Below, piece by piece: positions 1-9,208 of a stretch of 9,208 nucleotides of DNA. Numbering within the stretch: the stretch's first letter is position 1; every line of letters starts with the position of its first letter. This stretch comes from a virus. Taxonomy: Duplodnaviria > Heunggongvirae > Uroviricota > Caudoviricetes. A program made the position numbers and the translations under genes. Below the pieces are notes generated by a model. That model did no database searches and was not told the DNA's origin. It saw only the letters and a list, made by a program, of their open reading frames with translations. The stretch covers positions 1 through 9,208 of the IMG/VR virus record IMGVR_UViG_2526164634_000013. The stretch is one strand, 5' to 3'.

Positions 1-1
1 C

Positions 2-172
2 ACCATTGGCGATAAAAGCATTTACCTGTATGACCTGCGCCGCATGGATGAAATCATGGAGGCTCTTGATAATCGTTCGTCGATGGATTGGTGTGTTGCT
101 GTCCATGATATGAATGCCGGATTTGATGAAAGGATTTTGTTCCCCTCATCAGTTGAAAGCACTGCGGGTTAA
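2..172 (+). CDS. 3' end of an upstream gene (partial, function unknown)
   Basis: Reading frame 2 is open from the window edge to TAA at 170-172 (…SVESTAG*). No start codon in window and no recognisable motif. The stop overlaps the AAGGAG Shine-Dalgarno of the next gene. Confidence 0.3.
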   Translation, partial: TIGDKSIYLYDLRRMDEIMEALDNRSSMDWCVAVHDMNAGFDERILFPSSVESTAG

Positions 173-182
173 GGAGTAACAC

Positions 183-1412
183 ATGACCACTATTACCAAA
201 GAACGTATTGAATTGTTCATTAAAAATCCGCTTGAAAACGGGCTTACCCGTGGTGAACAAATGGAACTGGCACGGATTGCGCTGGCATCGCTGGAAGCAG
301 ATCCAGTTAAACGAGTTAACTCAGATCAGATGCGCCGAGTCTGCTTAGAAGCTAATCGCCATTTAGATAAATATGACGCGATGGCGAAAGAGGTAAATAA
401 GTTGCTTGGACGCATCGCCCCGCCAGCGCCGGTAGTGCCGGAAGAAGCAACTCCGGAAAACGTAGAAATGCTCTCTGGCTATGTTTCCACGTACAAATTA
501 ACCGATAGCGAGCGCGATATTGCTACCGAAATATGGAACGCCTGCCGCGCCGCCATGCTTCAGTCCGGAAACTTTCGGGAAAACAAGAATTCGTCAACCA
601 ATAATTTTCGGGAAATCGCGGAAACGTCAACCAACTATCCGGCAATTCCTAGTGAGGTGTTGTCCGCAATCCTGAAGGTTGCCAGGATTCGTGCCGATTT
701 CGATGATTTTGACGGTGACAGGCGAGGTATCGGTGATTGTCTGGATGAGGCTGAGCAAGAGCTTATCGTTACCATTAACAAATATGCCAGTCAGTTGGCA
801 GCAGAACCGATAGCGACTAATGACGTTCGAGAGCAGCAGACAGCCGTTCCGCCAGTTCCGGAAATACAGGATGATGTCGCGCAAGCAATTGAAAATCTCA
901 AGCAGAAGTTAGTGGAATGCAATCGCTATAACTACTGCGCAGATGCAGTTAAAGGCGTAGAGGATGCCTGCCACGCTGCCATGCTTCAGGGTAGCCAACC
1001 TGTAAGCCAAACTTACAAGTTGCCAGTTAATACACCTTGCCAAGATGCGCCAGCCCATATCTGGCTGCAAACGGCTGGAGTATGGCCAGAAGATGGCGAG
1101 TTAAGCGAATTAACGTGGTGCAGCCACAATCAGCACCATGATGACACGCTATATGTTCGAGCTGACCTTGTGAATGGCAACTCTCCGGTAACTCCGGATG
1201 GTTGGATAAGCTGTAGTGAGCGAATGCCGGATACCAAAACAGCCGTTCTTGTTGCCAGGGAGTTTGACAGGAAAGGTGACTGGCGAATGAAATGGGCGAC
1301 TTACATCCCGGGTCATCCTGACGCTAATGATGGGTGGATAATACCTGGTGCGTCGTGGATACCATCACACTGGATGCCTCTACCAGAACCGCCGCAGGAG
1401 GTGCGCCAATGA
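183..1412 (+). CDS. Prophage protein with C-terminal DUF551-like domain; N-terminal ~300 aa of unknown function
   Basis: 409-aa ORF with ATG at 183 preceded by AAGGAG (171-176). The C-terminus (…WISCSERMPD…WIIPGASWIPSHWMPLPEPPQ) matches, from memory, the W-rich DUF551 signature ending in HWMPLPEPP seen in enterobacterial prophage proteins. No database search was run. Confidence 0.75.
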   Translation: MTTITKERIELFIKNPLENGLTRGEQMELARIALASLEADPVKRVNSDQMRRVCLEANRHLDKYDAMAKEVNKLLGRIAPPAPVVPEEATPENVEMLSGYVSTYKLTDSERDIATEIWNACRAAMLQSGNFRENKNSSTNNFREIAETSTNYPAIPSEVLSAILKVARIRADFDDFDGDRRGIGDCLDEAEQELIVTINKYASQLAAEPIATNDVREQQTAVPPVPEIQDDVAQAIENLKQKLVECNRYNYCADAVKGVEDACHAAMLQGSQPVSQTYKLPVNTPCQDAPAHIWLQTAGVWPEDGELSELTWCSHNQHHDDTLYVRADLVNGNSPVTPDGWISCSERMPDTKTAVLVAREFDRKGDWRMKWATYIPGHPDANDGWIIPGASWIPSHWMPLPEPPQEVRQ

Positions 1413-1492
1413 ACTGGCCTGAAGCATTTGCAATTACAGGCGTTGCTATGGCTATAGCTTTTTTAGTATATGTTATTTGTCGGTGGGGGTAA
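1409..1492 (+). CDS. Micro-ORF, 27-aa hydrophobic peptide (MNWPEAFAITGVAMAIAFLVYVICRWG), putative single-pass membrane peptide
   Basis: ATG at 1409 overlaps the TGA of the upstream gene (ATGA coupling). AGGAGG at 1396-1401 sits 7 nt upstream. A hydrophobic stretch of about 20 residues is followed by RW. Too short for the supplied ORF track; translated by hand. Confidence 0.4.
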   Translation: MNWPEAFAITGVAMAIAFLVYVICRWG

Positions 1493-1527
1493 AAACGTTC
1501 GCCGGGATTAACACCAAAGGAGGGAAT

Positions 1528-1632
1528 ATGTCGGATGATATATCACTGGCAATGGAAGGTGCGCTGGCTGTTGTTGCTGTTGTGGGCGTTTACTGCCTGG
1601 TTGTGTTTTTGATGGATCGACTAGGGAACTGA
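1528..1632 (+). CDS. Micro-ORF, 34-aa hydrophobic peptide (MSDDISLAMEGALAVVAVVGVYCLVVFLMDRLGN), putative single-pass membrane peptide
   Basis: ATG at 1528 with AAGGAGGG at 1517-1524. Acidic N-terminus followed by a ~20-residue hydrophobic helix. Not in the ORF track; translated by hand. Confidence 0.45.
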   Translation: MSDDISLAMEGALAVVAVVGVYCLVVFLMDRLGN

Positions 1633-1640
1633 ATTCATTA

Positions 1641-1662
1641 CGATATGGGAATTCCCATATCG
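1641..1662. repeat. Perfect 22-bp palindrome CGATATGGGAATTCCCATATCG
   Basis: The sequence equals its own reverse complement and contains a central GAATTC. It lies 9 nt after the stop of the 34-aa micro-ORF and about 35 bp upstream of the predicted hok promoter. No U-tract follows, so it is not a classical intrinsic terminator. Confidence 0.6.
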
Positions 1663-1673
1663 GGTAAAAACGG

Positions 1674-1702
1674 TTTGCGGTAAAGCGAGAGTTAAGTAGA
1701 AT
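1674..1702 (+). promoter_or_regulatory. Candidate sigma70 promoter of the hok transcript (-35 TTTGCG/TTGCGG, -10 TAGAAT at 1697-1702)
   Basis: TAGAAT matches the -10 consensus at 5 of 6 positions, with a 16-17 bp spacer to a weak TTG-containing -35. The predicted +1 near 1707-1709 coincides with the 5' arm of the long-range complementarity to the mRNA 3' end. Confidence 0.4.
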
Positions 1703-1878
1703 TGCAGCGGGTGCTTGAGGCTATCTGTCTCAGGCATGAACACCAAAAGGCAGATAGAGAAAAGCCCCAGTTAACATTATGCGTCCTGCAAGACGCTTAA
1801 CATTAATCTGAGGCCCAATCTATGTCTCACAAATGTAGGTTAGCCTCTTACGTGCCGAAAGGCAAGGAGAAGCAGGCT

Positions 1879-2034
1879 ATGAAGCAGCAAAAGGCGATGT
1901 TAATCGCCCTGATCGTCATCTGTTTAACCGTCATAGTGACGGCACTGGTAACGAGGAAAGACCTCTGCGAGGTACGAATCCGAACCGGCCAGACGGAGGT
2001 CGCTGTCTTCACAGCTTACGAACCTGAGGAGTAA
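1879..2034 (+). CDS. hokD: Hok/Gef-family type I toxin (51 aa, small membrane-depolarising peptide)
   Basis: The product MKQQKAMLIALIVICLTVIVTALVTRKDLCEVRIRTGQTEVAVFTAYEPEE has the Hok/Gef hallmark: N-terminal TM helix and conserved TRKDLCEV…R…G…EVA.F.AYE. From memory it matches E. coli HokD/RelF very closely. The family call is secure; the exact paralog name is by recall only. An in-frame upstream ATG at 1822 with GAGG SD gives the 70-aa track ORF. Confidence 0.85.
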   Translation: MKQQKAMLIALIVICLTVIVTALVTRKDLCEVRIRTGQTEVAVFTAYEPEE

Positions 2035-2082
2035 GAGACCAGGCGGGGGAGAATCCCTCGCCACCTCTGATGTGTCAGGCAT

Positions 2083-2097
2083 CCTCAACGCACCCGC
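2083..2097 (+). promoter_or_regulatory. 3' fold-back element of hok mRNA (fbi-like), complementary to the predicted 5' end at 1707-1720
   Basis: 1707-1720 (GCGGGTGCTTGAGG) pairs antiparallel with 2083-2097 (CCTCAACGCACCCGC): 8 bp plus 6 bp with one bulged C. This is the architecture described for hok mRNAs, where the 3' end pairs with the 5' translational activator region. Confidence 0.5.
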
Positions 2098-2103
2098 ACT
2101 TAA

Positions 2104-2128
2104 CCCGCTTCGGCGGGTTTTGTTTTTT
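2104..2128 (+). terminator. Rho-independent terminator ending the hok transcript
   Basis: Hairpin CCGC-TTCG-GCGG (2105-2116) followed by GTTTTGTTTTTT. Confidence 0.75.
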
Positions 2129-2200
2129 CCTGGCATTCTGGTTTACAATTCGCACACCAGCCTGAACAACTGGCACCTGCTGCGCCAGCAGAGACAACCG

Positions 2201-2479
2201 ATGGCGCACGATACCAAATTACACAATTCTGATGATTCTGCCGTCTTTGCCAGCAGGCACGGGCGGCGTTCCCGCACTTTCAAATCTGACTGGTTCCAGC
2301 ATCCCCCATGCACTGAAGAACAGGCCGAGTGGCTAATTCAGTGCTACCGCAGACACGGATACGAGATTAAGAAAGCCCTCAGCCTCGATTATCGTCACTG
2401 GATAATCTCCGTCAGGCTTCCTTACTCCGAACGCCCACCGCGTCCGTCCCGCACATTCCAGCAACGCATCTGGAGGTAA
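2201..2479 (+). CDS. Small basic hypothetical protein (92 aa); Rem-like by position only
   Basis: ORF with ATG at 2201 chosen because the track start at 2072 would overlap the hok terminator. The SD is weak (GAGA). The TAA stop at 2477-2479 sits 1 nt before the GTG start of the next gene. Sits where rem sits between hokD and ydfU in the Qin prophage, as I recall that order. Confidence 0.45.
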   Translation: MAHDTKLHNSDDSAVFASRHGRRSRTFKSDWFQHPPCTEEQAEWLIQCYRRHGYEIKKALSLDYRHWIISVRLPYSERPPRPSRTFQQRIWR

Positions 2480-2480
2480 C

Positions 2481-3527
2481 GTGCGGGTATTACTTCGACC
2501 TGTTCTGGTACCGGAACTCGGGCTGGTGATCGTTAAGCCGGGCCGTGAATCCATGCCGGTATTCCACAATACCCGGGTACTGGTGGAGCCGGAACCGAAA
2601 AGCATGCGTAATCTGTCGTCCGGGGTCGTTCCTGCCGTTCGCCAGCCGCTGGCGGAGGATAAATCATTACTGCCATTTTTCAGCGACGAACGAGTGATTC
2701 GTGCTGCTGGTGGCGCTGGCGCATTGTCTGACTGGTTACTGCGCCATGTTAAATCCTGCCAGTGGCCACACGGCGATTATCACCACAGTGAAACCGTCAT
2801 TCACCGTTATGGTACCGGCGCAATGGTGTTGTGCTGGCACTGCGACAACCAGCTGCGCGACCAGACCTCCGAATCACTCGGGCAACTTGCTCACCAAAAC
2901 CTGTCTGCATGGATGATTGACGTCATACGCCATGCAATGAATGGCTCGCAGGAACGGGAATTATCGCTGGCTGAATTATCCTGGTGGGCGGTCCGCAATC
3001 AGGTGGCGGACGCGCTACCGGAAGCGGTATTACGTCGTTCGCTGGGGTTGCGTGCGGAAAAAATCCGCTCAATGTACCGTGAAAGCGACATCGTACCGGG
3101 AGAGCAGACCGCCACCAGCATACTGAAGCAGCGCACAAAAAATCTTGCGCCGCTGCCTCACGCCCACCAGCAAAACCCGCCACAGGAAGAGACGGTGGTC
3201 AGCATTGCCGTTGATCCTGAGTCTCCGGAATCTTTCATGAAACGACCTAAACGTCGCCGCTGGGTTAACGAGAAATACACACGCTGGGTGAAGACACAGC
3301 CGTGTGCGTGTTGTGGTAAGCCAGCCGACGATCCCCATCACCTGATTGGTCATGGTCAGGGCGGAATGGGGACAAAATCTCACGATATTTTCACGCTACC
3401 GCTGTGTCGGGAGCATCACAACGAGCTTCATGCGGATCCTCTGGCGTTCGAAGAAAAGTATGCTTCTCAGGTTGATTTAATTTTTCGTTTTCTTGATCAC
3501 GCCTTTGCAACTGGCGTGCTTGGGTAA
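2481..3527 (+). CDS. ydfU: DUF968 (YdfU-like) prophage protein with C-terminal Cys/His HNH-like motif
   Basis: 348-aa ORF with GTG start at 2481 and GGAGG at 2472-2476. The C-terminal segment CACCGKPADDPHHLIGHGQGG…LPLCREHHNELH resembles a zinc-binding HNH-type module. The length matches the roughly 349-aa YdfU of Qin as I recall it; the family call is by recall. Confidence 0.75.
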   Translation: MRVLLRPVLVPELGLVIVKPGRESMPVFHNTRVLVEPEPKSMRNLSSGVVPAVRQPLAEDKSLLPFFSDERVIRAAGGAGALSDWLLRHVKSCQWPHGDYHHSETVIHRYGTGAMVLCWHCDNQLRDQTSESLGQLAHQNLSAWMIDVIRHAMNGSQERELSLAELSWWAVRNQVADALPEAVLRRSLGLRAEKIRSMYRESDIVPGEQTATSILKQRTKNLAPLPHAHQQNPPQEETVVSIAVDPESPESFMKRPKRRRWVNEKYTRWVKTQPCACCGKPADDPHHLIGHGQGGMGTKSHDIFTLPLCREHHNELHADPLAFEEKYASQVDLIFRFLDHAFATGVLG

Positions 3528-3539
3528 AAGAGGTGACTG

Positions 3540-3899
3540 ATGCTCATAGATTTGGTTTTACCTTACCCGCCGACGGTGAACACTTACTGGCGACGCCGTG
3601 GCAGCACATATTTTATCTCGGAGGAGGGAAAGCGTTATCGCCGTGATGTGGCGCTTATTGTTCGCCAGCAGCAACTGAAATTAAACCTGTCCGGAAGGCC
3701 GGCAATAGAAATTATTGCAGAGCCACCGGATAAGCGCCGTCGTGACCTGGACAATATCCTGAAGGCACCACTGGATGTACTGACGCATGCGGGGCTGCTC
3801 ATAGACGACGAGCAGTTTGATGAAATTAATATTGTGCGCGGTCAGCTTGTTCCTGGTGGGCGGTTGGGGATAAAAATCACAGAACTGGAGTATGCATGA
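3540..3899 (+). CDS. rusA: RusA-family Holliday junction resolvase
   Basis: 119-aa product with PPxxNxYWRRRG…RRRDLDN…DDxQ…GGRL, matching the RusA catalytic acidic-residue pattern. SD AGAGG upstream. The stop overlaps the next start (ATGA at 3896-3899). Confidence 0.88.
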   Translation: MLIDLVLPYPPTVNTYWRRRGSTYFISEEGKRYRRDVALIVRQQQLKLNLSGRPAIEIIAEPPDKRRRDLDNILKAPLDVLTHAGLLIDDEQFDEINIVRGQLVPGGRLGIKITELEYA

Positions 3900-4585
3900 A
3901 TAACCAGTATTTACAGTTTGTTCGTGAGCAACTCATGATTGCCACCGCCGATTTGAGTGGATCAACAAAAGGGCAGCTTGAGGCCTGGCAGGAGAATGCC
4001 ATGTTTGATACAGGGCGTTACAGGCGTAAAAAAATCCGGTACCGCGATGAAGTGACTGGAAAAATGATAACGCGGGATAATCCACCAATCCCGGGAAAGC
4101 AATCGCTGGCGAAGGGGGCGTCAATTCCTCTCGTCAGTCCGGTTGAGTTTTTGACATCATCGTGGCGGCGGGCTGTTCTGTCTCTTGAAGAACATCATAA
4201 AGCCTGGTTGTTGTGGTGTTACAGCGGGAGTATTTGTTGGGAATATCAGATCGCGATAACGCAGTGGGTGTGGAATGAATTTAAAACCCGGTACGGCACC
4301 AGAAAAATTGCAGGGAAAACGCAGGAGCGCGCGAAGAAGTTGATCTGGCTGGCGGCACAGGATGTCAGAGGATGGATTACCGGGTGTGAGGTCTACCAGA
4401 GACAGGAGCTTGCCAGACTGTGTGGAGTTAAGCCTGATAACTGGAGCCATAATTATGCGAACTACTGGCGTGAGATGTGCGATATTTTTAAGAGTCTCGA
4501 TAGAGAATCTGTGATTTGCACCGTGAAAATAAGAGCGCAACAAAAAGCGACTTTTTCACGACGAGATATTGCAAAAGTCAATTAA
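3896..4585 (+). CDS. Putative late-gene antiterminator Q (long Q-like family, QuuQ/YdfT-type)
   Basis: 229-aa ORF translationally coupled to rusA, with GGAG 5 nt upstream. It is the last gene before a promoter-like AT-rich stretch and a strong terminator, which is the canonical Q position in lambdoid phages. The family is inferred mainly from synteny; I cannot confirm by motif. Confidence 0.55.
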   Translation: MNNQYLQFVREQLMIATADLSGSTKGQLEAWQENAMFDTGRYRRKKIRYRDEVTGKMITRDNPPIPGKQSLAKGASIPLVSPVEFLTSSWRRAVLSLEEHHKAWLLWCYSGSICWEYQIAITQWVWNEFKTRYGTRKIAGKTQERAKKLIWLAAQDVRGWITGCEVYQRQELARLCGVKPDNWSHNYANYWREMCDIFKSLDRESVICTVKIRAQQKATFSRRDIAKVN

Positions 4586-4644
4586 ATAGCGTACGTTTCG
4601 TATAAATCTGATATTTTGCCGATTTTGTACGCGATGGCAAAGTA

Positions 4645-4675
4645 AGAAAAAAACTGCCGTCAGGCGGTTTTTTTT
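4645..4675 (+). terminator. Strong intrinsic terminator downstream of Q (tR'-like), flanked by A-run and T-run
   Basis: AGAAAAAAA, then stem CTGCC-GTCA-GGCGG (one G-U pair), then TTTTTTTT (4668-4675). It is about 60 nt downstream of a TATAAAT box (4601-4607). Confidence 0.7.
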
Positions 4676-4797
4676 ATGCCCAAAATCGCGTCAGTACAGT
4701 AAACACGCTGGTGGTTGCGAATACGGGTCTTTCAGCTTGCTGGCTTTTTCGACAAGAGTTATTGGTATGTCACGTTAACCGGAAAAAGGAAAAAGAC

Positions 4798-4995
4798 ATG
4801 CTAAAACAGCAGGATATGACAGAAACCGCCAGAGTGGTGTTTAATGAATTAAGCGTTACCGAACCGGCGACAGTCGGGGAGATAGCGCAGAATACTTACC
4901 TTTCACGCGAACGCTGCCAGTTAATACTGACTCAGCTGGTTATGGCGGGTCTGGCAGACTATCAGTTCGGTTGTTACAGACGCCTTCCGCAGTGA
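4798..4995 (+). CDS. Small helix-turn-helix DNA-binding protein (65 aa)
   Basis: ATG at 4798 with AGGA 8-11 nt upstream. The segment ATVGEIAQNTYLSRERCQLILTQLVMAGLA has an HTH-like pattern. The track start at 4711 is an in-frame extension lacking an SD. Confidence 0.55.
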   Translation: MLKQQDMTETARVVFNELSVTEPATVGEIAQNTYLSRERCQLILTQLVMAGLADYQFGCYRRLPQ

Positions 4996-5006
4996 AGGCT
5001 TTTTTA
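4982..5006 (+). terminator. Intrinsic terminator overlapping the stop codon of the HTH gene
   Basis: Stem GCCTTC (4982-4987) / GAAGGC (4994-4999) with loop CGCAGT, followed by TTTTTTATTT. Confidence 0.6.
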
Positions 5007-5023
5007 TTTGTGGTAAATGGGCG

Positions 5024-5052
5024 GCTGGTGGGTGTTAGGGGCACCCACCAGC
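5024..5052 (+). repeat. Perfect 11-bp-stem hairpin (GCTGGTGGGTG / CACCCACCAGC, 7-nt loop) in the methyltransferase leader
   Basis: Exact inverted repeat with no following U-tract. A second 7-bp-stem hairpin lies at 5095-5113 (CTGCTTT-GCGCA-AAAGCAG). Confidence 0.6.
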
Positions 5053-5145
5053 CATCTGCTCATGCGTTGGGTTCACAAGCAAACCTCAGGCCCACTGCTT
5101 TGCGCAAAAGCAGAATGAGCCTATCAGAGACAGGCTTAATGATCC

Positions 5146-6195
5146 ATGCTTAATACTGTAAAAATATCCAGTTGTGAGTTAATCAACGCCGACTGCCTGG
5201 AATTTATCCGGTCGTTACCCGAAAATTCTGTTGACCTGATAGTCACGGACCCGCCGTACTTTAAAGTGAAGCCTGAGGGCTGGGATAACCAGTGGAAGGG
5301 CGACGATGATTACCTGAAATGGCTGGACCAGTGTCTGGCGCAGTTCTGGCGGGTGCTGAAACCTGCCGGAAGTCTTTACCTGTTCTGTGGTCATCGCCTG
5401 GCATCTGATATCGAAATCATGATGCGTGAACGCTTCAGTGTGCTGAACCATATTATCTGGGCGAAGCCGTCCGGACGCTGGAACGGGTGCAACAAGGAAA
5501 GCCTGCGGGCGTATTTCCCCGCCACAGAGCGCATTCTGTTCGCGGAACATTATCAGGGGCCGTATCGCCCGAAAGATGCCGGGTATGAGGCGAAGGGCAG
5601 GGCACTGAAACAGCATGTGATGGCCCCGCTGATTTCTTACTTTCGTGATGCGCGCGCTGCCCTGGGGATAACGGCAAAACAGATAGTGGATGCCACAGGA
5701 AAGAAAAACATGGTGTCACACTGGTTCAGTGCCAGTCAGTGGCAGCTACCGAACGAAAGCGATTATCTGAAATTACAGTCGCTGTTTGCCCGGGTGGCAG
5801 AAGAGAAACATCAGCGGGGAGAACTGGAAAAGTCCCATTACCAACTGGTCAGCACATACAGTGAGCTGAACCGGCAGTATACGGAACTGCAGAGTGAATA
5901 TAAGCATCTGCGGCGGTATTTTGGCGTGACGGCGCAGGTGCCGTACACGGATGTGTGGACGCATAAACCGGTGCAGTACTATCCAGGGAAACATCCGTGC
6001 GAAAAACCGGCAGAAATGCTGCAGCAGATAATCAGCGCAAGTAGTCGTCCTGGTGATCTGGTTGCGGATTTTTTCATGGGGTCGGGTTCAACGGTAAAAG
6101 CGGCGATGGCACTGGGGCGTCGTGCGATTGGCGTTGAACTGGAGACCGGACGTTTTGAGCAGACAGTCAGGGAAGTTCAGGATTTAATCGTTTGA
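5146..6195 (+). CDS. Orphan DNA methyltransferase, beta class (N6-adenine/N4-cytosine family, PF01555-like)
   Basis: 349-aa product with catalytic DPPY (residues 35-38) preceding the AdoMet-binding motif HPCEKP…GDLVADFFMGSGST (residues 283-316). That motif order defines the beta class, and DPPY rather than SPPY favours N6-adenine. No obvious SD before the ATG. No restriction endonuclease ORF in the window. Confidence 0.88.
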   Translation: MLNTVKISSCELINADCLEFIRSLPENSVDLIVTDPPYFKVKPEGWDNQWKGDDDYLKWLDQCLAQFWRVLKPAGSLYLFCGHRLASDIEIMMRERFSVLNHIIWAKPSGRWNGCNKESLRAYFPATERILFAEHYQGPYRPKDAGYEAKGRALKQHVMAPLISYFRDARAALGITAKQIVDATGKKNMVSHWFSASQWQLPNESDYLKLQSLFARVAEEKHQRGELEKSHYQLVSTYSELNRQYTELQSEYKHLRRYFGVTAQVPYTDVWTHKPVQYYPGKHPCEKPAEMLQQIISASSRPGDLVADFFMGSGSTVKAAMALGRRAIGVELETGRFEQTVREVQDLIV

Positions 6196-6244
6196 AACGG
6201 ATGAGATTGCAGAATTAATTACGCACCATTATTATTCTGCTCCC

Positions 6245-6320
6245 GGCCCTTTAGCTCAGTGGTGAGAGCGAGCGACTCATAATCGCCAGGTCGCTGGTTC
6301 AAATCCAGCAAGGGCCACCA
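6245..6320 (+). tRNA. ileZ: tRNA-Ile2 (anticodon CAU, lysidine type), ileZ-like
   Basis: Hand-folded cloverleaf: acceptor GGCCCTT/AAGGGCC, D-stem GCTC/GAGC, anticodon loop CTCATAA, T-loop TTCAAAT, encoded CCA. Closely resembles E. coli tRNA-Ile2 as recalled. Confidence 0.8.
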
Positions 6321-6327
6321 TCACATA

Positions 6328-6404
6328 CCGCCATTAGCTCATCAGGAAAGAGCGCCAGCCTTCGAAGCTGGCTGCGCGGAGTTCGGGTCCCCGAAGGCGG
6401 TCCA
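6328..6404 (+). tRNA. argN: tRNA-Arg (anticodon UCG as read from sequence), argN-like; atypical stems
   Basis: Perfect anticodon stem CCAGC/GCTGG with loop CTTCGAA, D-stem GCTC/GAGC, encoded CCA. However there is one A-A mismatch in the acceptor stem, one A-C mismatch in the T-stem, and the T-loop is TTCGGGT (G at position 58). Confidence 0.55.
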
Positions 6405-6417
6405 TTATCTGTATCCT

Positions 6418-6494
6418 GCGTTGTTAGCTCAGCCGGACAGAGCAATTGCCTTCTAAGTAATCGGTCACTGGTTCGAATCCAGTACAACGCGCCA
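6418..6494 (+). tRNA. argO: tRNA-Arg (anticodon UCU), argO-like
   Basis: Acceptor GCGTTGT/ACAACGC, D-stem GCTC/GAGC, anticodon stem ATTGC/GTAAT with loop CTTCTAA, T-arm ACTGG-TTCGAAT-CCAGT, encoded CCA. Confidence 0.82.
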
Positions 6495-6508
6495 CACTTA
6501 TTTTCCCT

Positions 6509-6533
6509 GGCTCGCTTTTGCGGGCCTTTTTTT
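6509..6533 (+). terminator. Intrinsic terminator immediately after the tRNA cluster
   Basis: Stem GGCTCGC / GCGGGCC (one U-G pair) with loop TTTT, followed by TTTTTTT. Confidence 0.7.
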
Positions 6534-6730
6534 AAATGTCTCACAATTCAGACGGTTGACAGTTGTCTGTTTTGCGGGGAGTTTGTTAAAAGAAACTGGC
6601 ATGGTGAATCCCCCTGTGCGGAGGGGCAATCAGCGAGTAGGTATATGGGATAATCGCGGATTCAGGTGCTGGTACTGAATTCACCGGGAGGCACCCGGCA
6701 CCATGCAATGGCACATAGCGCCACTCTCCA

Positions 6731-6755
6731 GCCCCTCTCCGGAGGGGCTTTCTTA
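6731..6755 (+). terminator. GC-rich hairpin with T-rich tail (terminator-like) in the tRNA-to-esterase interval
   Basis: Stem GCCCCTC / GAGGGGC with loop TCCG, followed by TTTCTTA. Shares the core CGGAGGGGC with a second hairpin at 6611-6626. Confidence 0.4.
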
Positions 6756-6760
6756 TGGAC

Positions 6761-6788
6761 AAAAAAATCCCGCGCTGGGAGACGCGGG
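6761..6788 (-). terminator. Minus-strand intrinsic terminator-like element (hairpin CCCGCG/CGCGGG followed on the minus strand by U7)
   Basis: On the + strand this reads AAAAAAAT, then CCCGCG, an 8-nt loop, then CGCGGG. On the minus strand that is hairpin plus T-run. It sits back-to-back with the + strand hairpin at 6731-6755. Confidence 0.35.
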
Positions 6789-6982
6789 CGGCAAGGAATA
6801 AACATCAAAACGTGAAGTAATATTTCAGCTGGCGAATAATATCCGACAGTAATCACTCTGCGCAATAGCGCGGCCTTTTTCGTATTGCGGACTGTTGTCT
6901 CTCTTCTGCCATTGTCCTGTAACTTCCGGACTTCAGCCCGCTCCTCATTTTACTCACAATATTATCCCGGCCGGGAGGATTC

Positions 6983-8836
6983 ATGGCATTTAAACACTAT
7001 GATGTTGTCAGGGCGGCGTCGCCGTCAGACCTTGCGGAAAAGCTGACACATAAACTGAAAGAGGGCTGGCAGCCGTTTGGTAGTCCGGTGGCCATAACCC
7101 CTTATACCCTGATGCAGGCGATTGCAGCAGAAGGTGATGTGGTCGTCAGTGGTGCAACTGAGCCGGAGTGGTACTACGTCATCGTACTGGCCGGGCAGTC
7201 CAATGCCATGGCTTACGGTGAAGGGCTTCCGCTTCCGGATTCATACGATGCGCCGGATCCGCGCATTAAACAGCTGGCGCGCCGCAGTACAGTGACGCCG
7301 GGTGGGGCTGCCTGCAGATATAACGATATTATTCCGGCCGACCACTGCCTGCATGATGTGCAGGATATGAGTACGCTGAATCATCCGAAGGCAGACCTGA
7401 GCAAAGGGCAGTACGGCTGTGTCGGCCAGGGCTTACATATTGCCAAAAAACTGCTTCCGTATATCCCGAATAACGCGGGGATCCTGCTGGTACCATGCTG
7501 TCGTGGTGGTTCGGCATTCACCCAGGGCGCGGAGGGGACATTCAGTGCGGACACGGGGGCCAGCCAGGATTCGGCACGCTGGGGTGTGGGTAAACCGTTA
7601 TATCAGGACCTGATTGCGCGCACTAAAGCTGCATTACAGAAGAACCCGAAAAATGTGTTGCTGGCGGTGTGCTGGATGCAGGGAGAGTTTGACATGAGCG
7701 CCGCCACCTACGCACAGCAACCTGCGCTGTTTACAGCCATGCTGAAGCAGTTTCGTGCTGACCTCACTGTGTTTAACGCGCAGTGTCATGGTGGCAGTGC
7801 TGCAGATGTGCCGTGGATTTGTGGTGACACGACGTATTACTGGAAAAATACATACGCTACCCAGTACGACACCGTGTACGGCGGGTATAAAAACAGGGAG
7901 AGTGAGGGCGTTTATTTTGTGCCCTTCATGACAGACGGTAACGGCGTCAATACCGCCACTAACGCACCGGCAGAAGATCCGGATATTCCGGCATCAGGAT
8001 ATTACGGTGCGGCATCGAGAACGAATGGAAACCAGGTATCATCAAACCGCCCGACACATTTCAGTTCATGGGCGCGCAGGAGCATTATTCCGGATCGTAT
8101 GGCAACCGCTATTCTGAACGCAGCCGGGCGCACCTCAGCCTTCATCAGTGGTAAGGCACCGGAAATCAAACCCTCGCCCGGCGTCGACACGCCATCGGGG
8201 CCGTCTGAAGATGCATCCGTACGCACAATCTCCCTGTTGCCGACAGCCGGAGAGGCTGCTGCGCAGGGCTGGACCATTAAGGACGGCGGAATTCAGTTGT
8301 CGGGTGGTGTATTTAAGATCGCCAAGCAGAGCAATAAAGCCTGGTCCCTGACGCGCCCGGTGGGTGACGCAGTCTCCCTGCTGACACGGGGTGGCAGACT
8401 GAGCTGTAAGTTTCGACTGTCAGGCGCACTGACCAACAACCAGTTCGGTCTGGGAATTTATCTGTATACCGATGTAGCGTTACCTGACGTCGTGGCGATG
8501 ACCGGGACTGGTAACCCGTTCCTGATGTCGTTCTTCACCCAGACCACAGACGGCAAACTGAATCTGATGCATCACAAGAAAGCAGGAAACACAAAGTTGG
8601 GCGAGTTCGGGAATTACAGTAACGACTGGCAGACGCTGGAGCTGGTGTTCACCGCCGGCCAGTGCCACGGTTACTCCGAAACTGAATGGAGTGGCTGGCC
8701 CGGCATTCCAGGTCATAAAGACAGTCTGACAGTGGGACTAAATGCACTGACGCTGACGGATATTACCAAAAATGCAACGTATGGCGTTGAGATAGAAAGT
8801 CTGGTGCTGGAGATAAATGCACCGGCATCATCATAA
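6983..8836 (+). CDS. nanS-p: Prophage sialate O-acetylesterase NanS-p-like (SGNH/SASA hydrolase with N-terminal DUF1737-like region)
   Basis: 617-aa product. The motif [16 protein letters not shown] carries the GQSN catalytic-serine signature of SASA-type esterases (NanS/YjhS family). The N-terminal [21 protein letters not shown]… resembles the short domain that heads prophage NanS-p proteins. GGGAGG SD at 6973-6978. Confidence 0.8.
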
Positions 8837-8921
8837 AAAGTGAGCCAGTCAAGTGGAAGGTATCGTTAAACTCACCGGTAGTGTCAGTGGGTCGTCTGAG
8901 ACGCCTGCATGAGTTATCAGA

Positions 8922-8950
8922 GCCATCAGTACTTAACTGGTGGCTTTTTT
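8922..8950 (+). terminator. Intrinsic terminator between the esterase gene and the holin gene
   Basis: Stem GCCATCAG / CTGGTGGC (one G-U pair) with 7-nt loop TACTTAA, followed by TTTTTTATT. Confidence 0.6.
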
Positions 8951-8985
8951 ATTGTTGTCAGCTTCCGGATAACGGGAGACGGGGT

Positions 8986-9201
8986 ATGTACCAGATGGAA
9001 AAAATCACAACAGGTGTGTCATACACCACGTCAGCGGTGGGAACGGGCTACTGGTTCCTGCAGTTGCTGGACAGGGTTTCCCCGTCTCAGTGGGCGGCAA
9101 TAGGCGTGCTGGGGAGTCTGCTGTTTGGGCTGCTGACATATCTGACTAACCTGTATTTCAAAATCAGAGAGGACCGTCGTAAGGCGGCGCGGGGAGAGTA
9201 A
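8986..9201 (+). CDS. S: S21-like pinholin (class II holin) with dual-start motif
   Basis: 71-aa product [71 protein letters not shown]. From memory it is near-identical over the C-terminal two thirds to the phage 21 holin (…[15 protein letters not shown]…[22 protein letters not shown]). Two TM segments and Met1/Met4 dual starts. The track ORF from 8881 is an unsupported N-terminal extension. A new ATG at 9206 starts the next gene. Confidence 0.85.
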
Positions 9202-9208
9202 AGCGATG

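Follow-up and report, generated by a model that had tools for sequence, protein, structure and literature searches.

Two micro-open reading frames (micro-ORFs) lie between a gene ending in a DUF551 domain and a hok/sok toxin-antitoxin locus in the prophage DNA analyzed here, the IMG/VR record IMGVR_UViG_2526164634_000013, positions 1 to 9,208 (the whole 9,208-nt stretch is called the window below). We hold with high confidence that both ORF A (27 amino acids [aa], 1409 to 1492) and ORF B (34 aa, 1528 to 1632) are real coding genes whose products have membrane character. That they are more than chance ORFs is argued from their conservation and not from motif counting. They are small single-pass prophage membrane proteins rather than a new kind of system, and they overturn nothing: ORF B was already present in databases and in one ribosome-profiling paper, and the ORF A family appears to be new.

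We propose a model in which both products are single-pass inner-membrane peptides of the early accessory region (nin or exo-xis type) of a lambdoid prophage. In this model, ORF A would be made by termination-reinitiation, in a fixed proportion to the upstream Ea22-like/DUF551 protein, and both peptides would bind to some other membrane protein, be it from the host or the phage, and modulate it, instead of acting as self-contained, antisense-controlled toxins. Taken together, genuine membrane-peptide genes, coupling, and modulator role make up an explanation to which we give somewhat better than an even chance.

ORF A and its junction with the upstream gene

ORF A starts at an ATG (1409 to 1411), stops at a TAA (1490 to 1492), and encodes MNWPEAFAITGVAMAIAFLVYVICRWG (27 aa). 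Its ATG shares bases with the TGA (1410 to 1412) of the 409-aa DUF551 gene in the form ATGA, and a Shine-Dalgarno (SD) sequence, AGGAGG (1396 to 1401), lies 7 nt before it within the last codons of that gene. A preliminary description of this DNA had claimed two micro-ORFs of 27 and 34 aa at 1409 to 1632, each with a strong SD and one transmembrane helix, coupled to the DUF551 gene through a start overlapping the upstream stop. The coordinates and the SDs proved exact, and the overlap is that of ORF A at 1409 to 1412; the coupling stands for ORF A and falls for ORF B, which begins 35 nt farther on with its own ribosome-binding site. As for the helices, each peptide has one 18-residue hydrophobic stretch, with a Kyte-Doolittle mean of 2.48 for ORF A (residues 7 to 24) and 2.87 for ORF B (residues 12 to 29).

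Full-length 27-aa relatives of ORF A, at 55 to 70% protein identity, were found by tblastn in 99 of 50,697 phage records, including Stx1 and Stx2 phages, phage PhiR12, and the virulent Vequintavirinae phage Av-05; in IMG/VR, tblastn confirmed no fewer than 491 copies. The peptides in four inspected phage records read M[TNS]WP[ED]A...[IV]CRW[GR] and are 27 aa long throughout. The family as a whole is built from an N-terminal MxWP(E/D/T)AF..(I/V)G cap, a single hydrophobic helix, and a tail of a few aromatic or basic residues (ICRWG).

Selection on this peptide is readily seen. All 21 distinct 84-nt homologues have 27 codons, and the other two frames of these homologues contain stops. Their variable columns number 14, 13, and 24 at the first, second, and third codon positions, with positional entropies of 11.2, 9.4, and 25.1, and the mean nonsynonymous (dN) and synonymous (dS) divergences are 0.208 and 1.155 (dN/dS of ~0.18). 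Codons 7 to 27, which are free of search-pattern constraint, show 39 synonymous versus 32 nonsynonymous differences in four disjoint pairs, for 64.5 synonymous and 187.5 nonsynonymous sites (binomial p = 1.4e-7). Moreover, ORF A is intact in 52 of the 53 loci that were gathered via ORF B, and hence independently of ORF A; an in-frame two-codon deletion variant occurs among the loci gathered in this way. Frame conservation, which had been proposed as a check on both micro-ORFs, bears them out: frames, lengths, starts, and stops are kept in diverged homologues of A and of B, with dN/dS below 1. Among the alleles of loci L007 to L207, we also noted tails in CRCG or CRWE and rare frameshifted or extended forms (P0004, P0007, P0036, P0037, and P0039). 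As such tail variants circulate together with a form stopped at W26, the last two or three residues seem dispensable.

ORF A defines a recognizable family in phage contigs of widely differing base composition. Distant relatives with overlapping stop-starts (TGATG or TAATG) include those of the Salmonella P1-like phage SJ46 (24 aa) and of a Klebsiella phage (22 aa, with TAATG). When IMG/VR was scanned with a DNA pattern encoding M-x-W-P-x-A-F-x-I-V-G, 72 loci with ~30 distinct peptides of 21 to 33 aa matched, about one chance match being expected from a rough estimate of the collection size. Nearly all of these MxWPxAF peptides consist of the motif and one hydrophobic helix, and their starts overlap the upstream stop (ATGA, TGATG, or TAATG); the next gene often starts 1 to 5 nt past their own stop, and the phage contigs that bear them span 36 to 63% GC. 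With the narrow E. coli-type pattern, a scan over genome contigs returned Escherichia and Shigella only, once matches in Xanthomonas and Acinetobacter had been set aside as tiny contigs that look like contamination.

Two side observations concern the same family. A 36% GC phage contig (L248, minus strand, ~6864) carries tandem micro-ORFs, MMWLTAFMIVGWILIITFWWRGL followed by MDWPTAFTIVGCSFAILGVFWILVKA, which suggests duplication within the family. In Klebsiella-type loci (L225, L262, L266, L281, and L296), the micro-ORF is a 22- to 23-aa MDWPTAF... peptide and is followed 1 to 4 nt past its stop by a conserved 48-aa ORF (MNREFEIW...CHCRGLEVV), so that the upstream gene, the micro-ORF, and the 48-aa ORF form a three-gene chain of stop-start junctions.

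Searches of Pfam, NCBIfam, PHROGs, and PADLOC with ORF A, ORF B, the B2 form of ORF B, the natural A-B fusion (both described below), and ten distant ORF A relatives gave no meaningful match; the best profile match had an E value of ~0.002, and a curated cut-off was never reached. Extended ORFs served as queries in the searches for protein homologues. A weak match to phrog_38566 was not strengthened by the N-terminally extended protein P0030, and membership in that family was rejected. Altogether, we regard ORF A as a genuine gene of a family that is absent from Pfam, NCBIfam, PHROGs, and PADLOC and that appears to be uncatalogued.

The junction itself is conserved. The ATGA start is found in 140 of 141 E. 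coli-type copies, and the upstream coding sequence ends exactly 3 nt past the ORF A start in the four inspected records (Stx phages, Av-05, and PhiR12 among them). The proteins that precede ORF A have at least four unrelated C termini, namely ...PLPEPPQEV[RN]Q (DUF551), ...NIEQKVNQ, ...MLKKKGMNQ, and ...ISVEDVLR, and an SD-like purine block with the overlapping start is kept across all four (CAGGAGGTG, CAGAAGGTG, GAAGGGGATG, and GTGGAGGATG). The upstream partner is thus swapped while SD and overlap persist, which suggests that micro-ORF A together with its junction is a portable module. Of the two micro-ORFs, ORF A alone has the conserved stop-start overlap with an SD inside the upstream ORF that characterizes a coupled gene pair, and from this arrangement we infer that ORF A is translationally coupled to the upstream gene, presumably by reinitiation. 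The same overlap and embedded SD are known from the coupled ATGA and TAATG gene pairs of phage early operons; unlike in those usual pairs, the downstream partner is only 22 to 33 codons long here and stays constant while the upstream partner changes. The idea that ORF A is a membrane anchor split off from the DUF551 protein found no support, in that the fusion query had 12 matches in protein representatives, all close, truncated, or extended variants and none of them an A-DUF551 fusion.

The neighborhood and the early expression class of ORF A are those of the exo-xis/Ea22 region of lambda and Stx phages (orf60a, orf61, orf63, orf73, ea22, and ea8.5). Unlike lambda, which has no ORF A after ea22, the window has one after its Ea22-type gene, and the exo-xis literature that we searched, including a modelling review, does not mention a membrane micro-ORF.

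ORF B, the hok cassette, and the A-B pair

ORF B runs from an ATG (1528 to 1530) to a TGA (1630 to 1632) and encodes MSDDISLAMEGALAVVAVVGVYCLVVFLMDRLGN (34 aa); its SD, AAGGAGG (1517 to 1523), stands 4 nt before the ATG and is kept in all copies of the form found in the window (B1). The NCBI annotation pipeline PGAP lists ORF B as a hypothetical protein (WP_001278454.1, or WP_001278450.1). It corresponds to XECs145 of E. coli O157:H7 Sakai, with an identical peptide or one that differs at a single residue, at the same genomic position (Hücker et al. 2017, PMC5597208). In that study, XECs145 in LB medium had transcriptome and translatome values of 79.1 and 346.1 reads per kilobase per million (RPKM), a ribosome coverage value (RCV) of 4.35, and a coverage of 0.99; the corresponding values in the brain heart infusion control were 121.3, 150.1, 1.14, and 0.84, and the signal was essentially off under cold and osmotic stress. 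An inner-membrane location with one transmembrane helix was predicted, and the XECs145 interval covers the last ~22 nt of ORF A and the linker. We place the start of ORF B at the 34-aa form because the SD and the ATG/GTG start are conserved. The supplementary tables of that paper give XECs145 without functional follow-up, and neither hok linkage, a B2 subfamily, nor A-B fusions are mentioned in the portion available. It was the only paper found when the literature was searched with the peptide strings and for small ORFs lying upstream of hok, and none of these three features of the B family was found elsewhere in the literature searched.

Thus, the claim that both micro-ORFs are missing from annotation, easily lost through length cut-offs, applies to ORF A, which PGAP leaves unannotated in RefSeq E. 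coli genomes and which lies below the 30-aa limit of the Sakai screen; it does not apply to ORF B. Both exact peptides occur in a 15-billion-protein collection as "hypothetical protein" only. Ribosome occupancy, the other check that had been proposed, is likewise supplied by the literature for ORF B in LB, ORF A being shorter than the screen admitted.

Protein-level relatives of ORF B are confined to E. coli and other Enterobacteriaceae (76 to 100% identity). No match to ORF B was returned by tblastn against the phage records, probably through low-complexity masking combined with real rarity, and blastn of the ORF B region against phages yielded only divergent copies in phages Evi and Tritos besides a palindrome that follows the gene. 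Evi and Tritos carry a second form, B2, made of CAGGAGG, 5 nt, an invariant GTG, and LVLKCALAIAAVMAIYCLAVVLMDRLSD up to the stop; it lies directly upstream of hok, with ORF A and DUF551 absent nearby. B2 (29 to 30 aa) shares with B1 the frame, the SD, the start, and an end in ...YCLxVxLMDRLxx. A degenerate-pattern scan of IMG/VR gave at least 119 ORF B loci, which split into B1, found after ORF A, and B2; a third form, B3, occurs in locus L252 after a divergent ORF A and an unrelated linker. The dN/dS ratio is 0.18 within B1, 0.13 within B2, and 0.27 between B1 and B2. Start variants (ATG to GTG) and stop variants (TGA to TAA) leave the ORF intact, and the codon that precedes the GTG of B2 varies freely.

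ORF B travels with the hok cassette and not with DUF551. Among the loci with enough downstream sequence, hok follows ORF B in 103 of 105 (47 of 49 for B1 and 56 of 56 for B2). Of 5426 complete E. coli genomes, 1576 have B2 contiguous with the hok leader, and in roughly 40% a B-family peptide, mostly unannotated, stands upstream of hok. The locale of B2 is a ~670-nt "intergenic" gap before hokD in Qin-like prophages (e.g., in the E. coli chromosome loci L221, 4046 to 4138, and L222; also L087 and L088), and B2 was unannotated in all 27 cases inspected (the 25 matches listed plus two regions). A promoter scan of L221 placed the hok promoter equivalent, TTGGCG-17-TAGAAT, 8 nt past the B2 stop. 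The placement next to hok, which had been called notable for the two micro-ORFs together, is therefore a property of ORF B and not of the A-B pair.

This linkage raises the question whether ORF B is a third part of the prophage hok/sok cassette, one that modulates Hok as an immunity or co-toxin partner or conditions Hok-dependent killing during phage development. The near-constant adjacency, the B2 end only 8 nt before the hok -35 element, the contiguity with the hok leader in 1576 genomes, and the fact that ORF B and Hok are both small single-helix inner-membrane peptides would fit such a role. Physical linkage within a recombining module would yield the same co-occurrence, however, and many hok loci do without ORF B: VT2-Sakai is an example, and 3540 genomes match the hok leader compared with 630 that carry the A-B1 stretch. 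Conversely, ORF B is kept where hok has been replaced by an IbrA/IbrB-like pair (L217 to L219) and is intact in L252, where the hok ORF has apparently been lost; the portion available to us of a recent large Hok survey mentions no such partner. We consider a dedicated Hok partner quite unlikely. As an observation on its own, L252 (minus strand, from 663) holds, in order, the divergent ORF A, the unrelated 34-nt linker, B3, the palindrome, and the hok promoter and leader; the hok coding region appears to be replaced by other sequence, so that ORF B outlives hok there.

B1 is nearly always preceded by ORF A, and the A-B adjacency is kept in the divergent L252 lineage despite its unrelated linker. 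The ORF B cassette of the window is flanked by direct repeats of 11 nt, GGGTAAAAACG (1487 to 1497 and 1662 to 1672). In VT2-Sakai, ORF A is directly followed by TAAAAACGGTTTGCGG, the hok promoter region, with no ORF B and a single repeat copy at the join, which suggests insertion or deletion of the cassette by recombination at the repeat. ORF A and ORF B show no similarity to each other.

A run of five G (1485 to 1489) precedes the ORF A stop. Three metagenome contigs from two lineages have six G before the TAA (L217, 2501 to 2725; L218, 1053 to 1277; L219, 556 to 780; proteins P0008 and P0009), so that ORF A continues in frame through a linker of 13 aa into ORF B, giving a 74-aa protein. The existence of this fusion indicates that A and B are compatible in one polypeptide, and an AlphaFold2 model of it has two helices joined by a loop, at low confidence (predicted local distance difference test score of 67). 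Beside this, the three contigs carry, in place of hok, a convergent pair of 214-aa and 408-aa genes (PAPS_reduct/DUF3440, IbrA/IbrB-like).

The fusion alleles could also mean that A and B are one split gene, joined in the window by programmed -1 slippage at T GGG GGT AA to give 27-aa and 74-aa products. Indeed, the ORF B frame of the window is that of ORF A minus 1, the 35-nt linker is open, the P-site GGG can re-pair perfectly after a -1 slip, and the six-G alleles hard-wire the same 74-aa product in two lineages. Yet a canonical slippery heptamer and a stimulatory structure are absent, ORF B has its own strong SD and start, and the codon in question is GGA, GGT, or AGA in family members unlinked to ORF B. 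L252 breaks both the slippery site and the frame relationship: the G run is missing, the linker is unrelated, and ORF B is offset by +1 from the frame of ORF A. A conserved programmed frameshift was rejected on this ground, and the split-gene reading as a whole is extremely improbable.

Downstream of ORF B lies a perfect 22-bp palindrome, CGATATGGGAATTCCCATATCG (1641 to 1662), which folds into a hairpin of 9 bp (z = -2.7). B1 and B3 cassettes share this palindrome, and B2 lacks it. A terminator reading was rejected, given that there is no U tract and that its variants show no compensatory changes. A stretch of ~45 nt containing the palindrome recurs at 89 to 93% identity at unrelated sites of other phages, in PPompW prophages, in KilA-N/DNA-binding genes of vB_EcoS phages, and in a Proteus phage; the palindrome may serve as an operator-like site or represent a small mobile repeat. 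A moron would have its own promoter and terminator; for the ORF B cassette, expression in a lysogen and the bracketing repeat were observed, but no plus-strand promoter was found upstream of ORF B and the hairpin lacks a U tract.

A possible modulator role and its alternatives

Given two genuine membrane-peptide genes, what the peptides do is a separate matter, and the modulator role is put forward tentatively, at somewhat less than even chances. Four considerations lead us to favor accessory modulators: the amino-acid sequences evolve under purifying selection; ORF B is densely translated in ordinary growth; ORF A is made alongside an ordinary early gene; and neither an antisense RNA nor toxin-family similarity was found. 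In this model, ORF A would insert with its N terminus out and its C terminus in, a topology suggested by its acidic N-cap, its basic/aromatic C-tail, and the positive-inside rule. A and B could work side by side, since natural alleles fuse both into a two-helix protein, and the target or context of ORF B may be tied to the hok cassette.

The model takes its mode of action from small membrane proteins of the AcrZ, MgtS, MgrB, KdpF, and CydX type. These resemble A and B: they have fewer than 50 aa and a single transmembrane helix, are translated from a ribosome-binding site that is either their own or coupled, escape annotation because of its cut-offs, and come to light mainly through ribosome profiling. 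They act on a larger membrane protein, and by analogy we propose the same for A and B. They differ in being core chromosomal with known partners, whereas A and B are phage-borne and share no sequence similarity with them, and ORF A has the MxWPxAF cap.

TisB, Ldr, Ibs, and Hok-type toxins are likewise small peptides with a single hydrophobic helix. One or both peptides might act alone as membrane toxins, either as type I toxin-antitoxin toxins or as lysis modulators, silenced by an undiscovered antisense RNA or by mRNA structure; size, single helix, and prophage location would agree. Two minus-strand sigma-70-like hexamer pairs (1552 to 1525 and 1493 to 1465) could in principle drive antisense RNAs over the ORF B and ORF A ribosome-binding sites. 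They match at only 9 of 12 positions, however, and such sites occur at chance level (2 found versus 1.0 ± 1.2 expected); their conservation is uninformative because they overlap coding and SD sequence. An Rfam scan of 1409 to 1700 found no RNA family, and neither ORF A nor ORF B matches a toxin model of NCBIfam, Pfam, or PADLOC; Pfam gave no match for either at E <= 1, Hok (PF01848) included, and BLASTP produced no alignment between ORF B and the adjacent Hok. ORF A is coupled to an ordinary early gene and not separately gated. Moreover, ribosomes densely occupied ORF B in an unstressed lysogen in LB (translatome RPKM of 346 versus transcriptome RPKM of 79; RCV of 4.35), which shows none of the expected repression and argues against a tightly silenced type I toxin. 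We judge this alternative improbable. Compared with Hok/Gef (PF01848) itself, ORF B is also a small hydrophobic inner-membrane prophage peptide, and it is linked to hok/sok. Unlike Hok/Gef, A and B have no mok-like leader ORF, no fold-back mRNA elements, no Sok-like RNA, and no periplasmic Cys-containing domain, and ORF B is translated in normal growth and has no sequence match to Hok.

Small membrane proteins are also a known class of superinfection-exclusion factors. A and B could be such factors or other anti-phage factors that block DNA entry or a receptor or transporter of competing phages. Their place in the accessory, moron-rich region of temperate phages would suit this role, as would the expression of ORF B in the lysogen and the spread of ORF A over many unrelated temperate phages and a virulent one, Av-05. 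Yet there is no similarity to PADLOC defense models, and ORF A, being coupled to early lytic genes, would be expected to be expressed during infection and not in the lysogen. An exclusion function is unlikely, in our view.

Alternatively, the act of translation and not the peptide might matter, with ribosomes kept on the early transcript so as to prevent Rho-dependent polarity or to shield the hok promoter and leader from read-through, or else both ORFs might be decaying remnants. Tight packing (many family members have overlapping or nearly abutting stop-start junctions at either end), the B2 stop right at the hok -35 element, and the frameshifted, truncated, or fused state of some alleles could be read in this way. 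Purifying selection on amino acids (dN/dS of 0.18 for A and 0.13 to 0.27 for B) speaks against it, as does the persistence of the N-terminal motif and of hydrophobicity at dS above 1 and across 36 to 63% GC, and this reading is very improbable.

Several points nevertheless weigh against genuine genes acting as membrane-protein modulators. The modulator role is argued by analogy and exclusion. Frameshifted or stop-truncated ORF A alleles exist, namely P0004, P0007, the W26stop form of 25 aa (11 loci), and one allele reduced to MT before a stop. For ORF B, the polymorphisms outside pattern-forced codons (17 synonymous and 16 nonsynonymous, with 26% synonymous expected) give p = 0.002, and these statistics are modest: p is 0.17 when only B1 polymorphisms are counted and 0.07 for the one B1-B2 pair, and part of the sample was gathered with a pattern that requires some conserved codons. 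As to translation, Hücker et al. called XECs145 from an upstream alternative start (54 aa), so that the footprints do not fix the start codon (PMC5597208), Sakai reads may multi-map among near-identical prophage copies, and that screen took ORFs of at least 30 aa and excluded the 27-aa ORF A by design. Finally, ORF A often occurs without ORF B, and B2 without ORF A, so the partnership is not obligatory.

Small membrane proteins are systematically under-annotated, and prophage accessory regions hold much of the strain-specific biology of pathogenic E. coli. Besides the ORF A family, the B family adds a conserved gene beside hok, which is among the best-studied toxin-antitoxin loci. Two peptides, a natural fusion allele, and a defined junction are gained as experimental targets, and these bear on the role of accessory genes in the early region of Stx-type prophages and on the possible existence of protein partners for hok loci in prophages. 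At its most far-reaching, and as a long shot, the hok cassette would be a three-part membrane module in which the B peptide interacts with Hok in the inner membrane and sets whether or when Hok kills (e.g., by gating abortive infection or killing after induction), and the MxWPxAF peptides would be widespread phage modulators of host membrane proteins, made in a fixed ratio with early genes.

Surroundings in the prophage

Pfam, PHROGs, and Rfam matches identify the surroundings of the two micro-ORFs as the nin/Q region of a lambdoid prophage of the enterohemorrhagic E. coli type. The order is the Ea22-like/DUF551 gene, ORF A, ORF B, hok/sok, a 92-aa hypothetical gene, a DUF968 gene, rusA, and the antiterminator gene Q, followed by a DNA methylase gene, three tRNA genes, and a NanS-p-like esterase gene. 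The 1300 to 1760 stretch is covered at 80% or more in 630 of the 5426 complete E. coli genomes.

The upstream gene (183 to 1412, plus strand; 409 aa) is an Ea22-like mosaic early gene with a C-terminal DUF551 domain (PF04448, E = 5e-20, residues 340 to 405). Its product is a PHROG mosaic (phrog_14306, phrog_60, and phrog_5117), and its homologue is annotated by PGAP as a "DUF551 domain-containing protein." A C-terminal DUF551 domain characterizes the V2 variant of Ea22 of Stx phages (PMC10834534). On the other side, a putative hok promoter, TTTGCG-17 nt-TAGAAT (1674 to 1702), comparable to the L221 equivalent and placed directly after the ORF B cassette, precedes hok/sok (1709 to 2034, plus strand), in which Rfam sok (RF01794) matches at 1709 to 1884 with 121 bits and hok occupies 1879 to 2034 (PF01848, E = 1e-23; phrog_251, E = 3e-33).

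The 92-aa ORF (2201 to 2479) between hok and the DUF968 gene has no Pfam match; its position is conserved, and its homologue in related prophages is a PGAP hypothetical protein. The site downstream of Q is the usual position of stx in Stx phages. In the window, stx-sized genes are absent around the tRNA trio found there (Met-CAT, Arg-TCG, and Arg-TCT; 6245 to 6494), which is flanked by the DNA methylase gene (5146 to 6195) and the NanS-p-like esterase gene (6983 to 8836).

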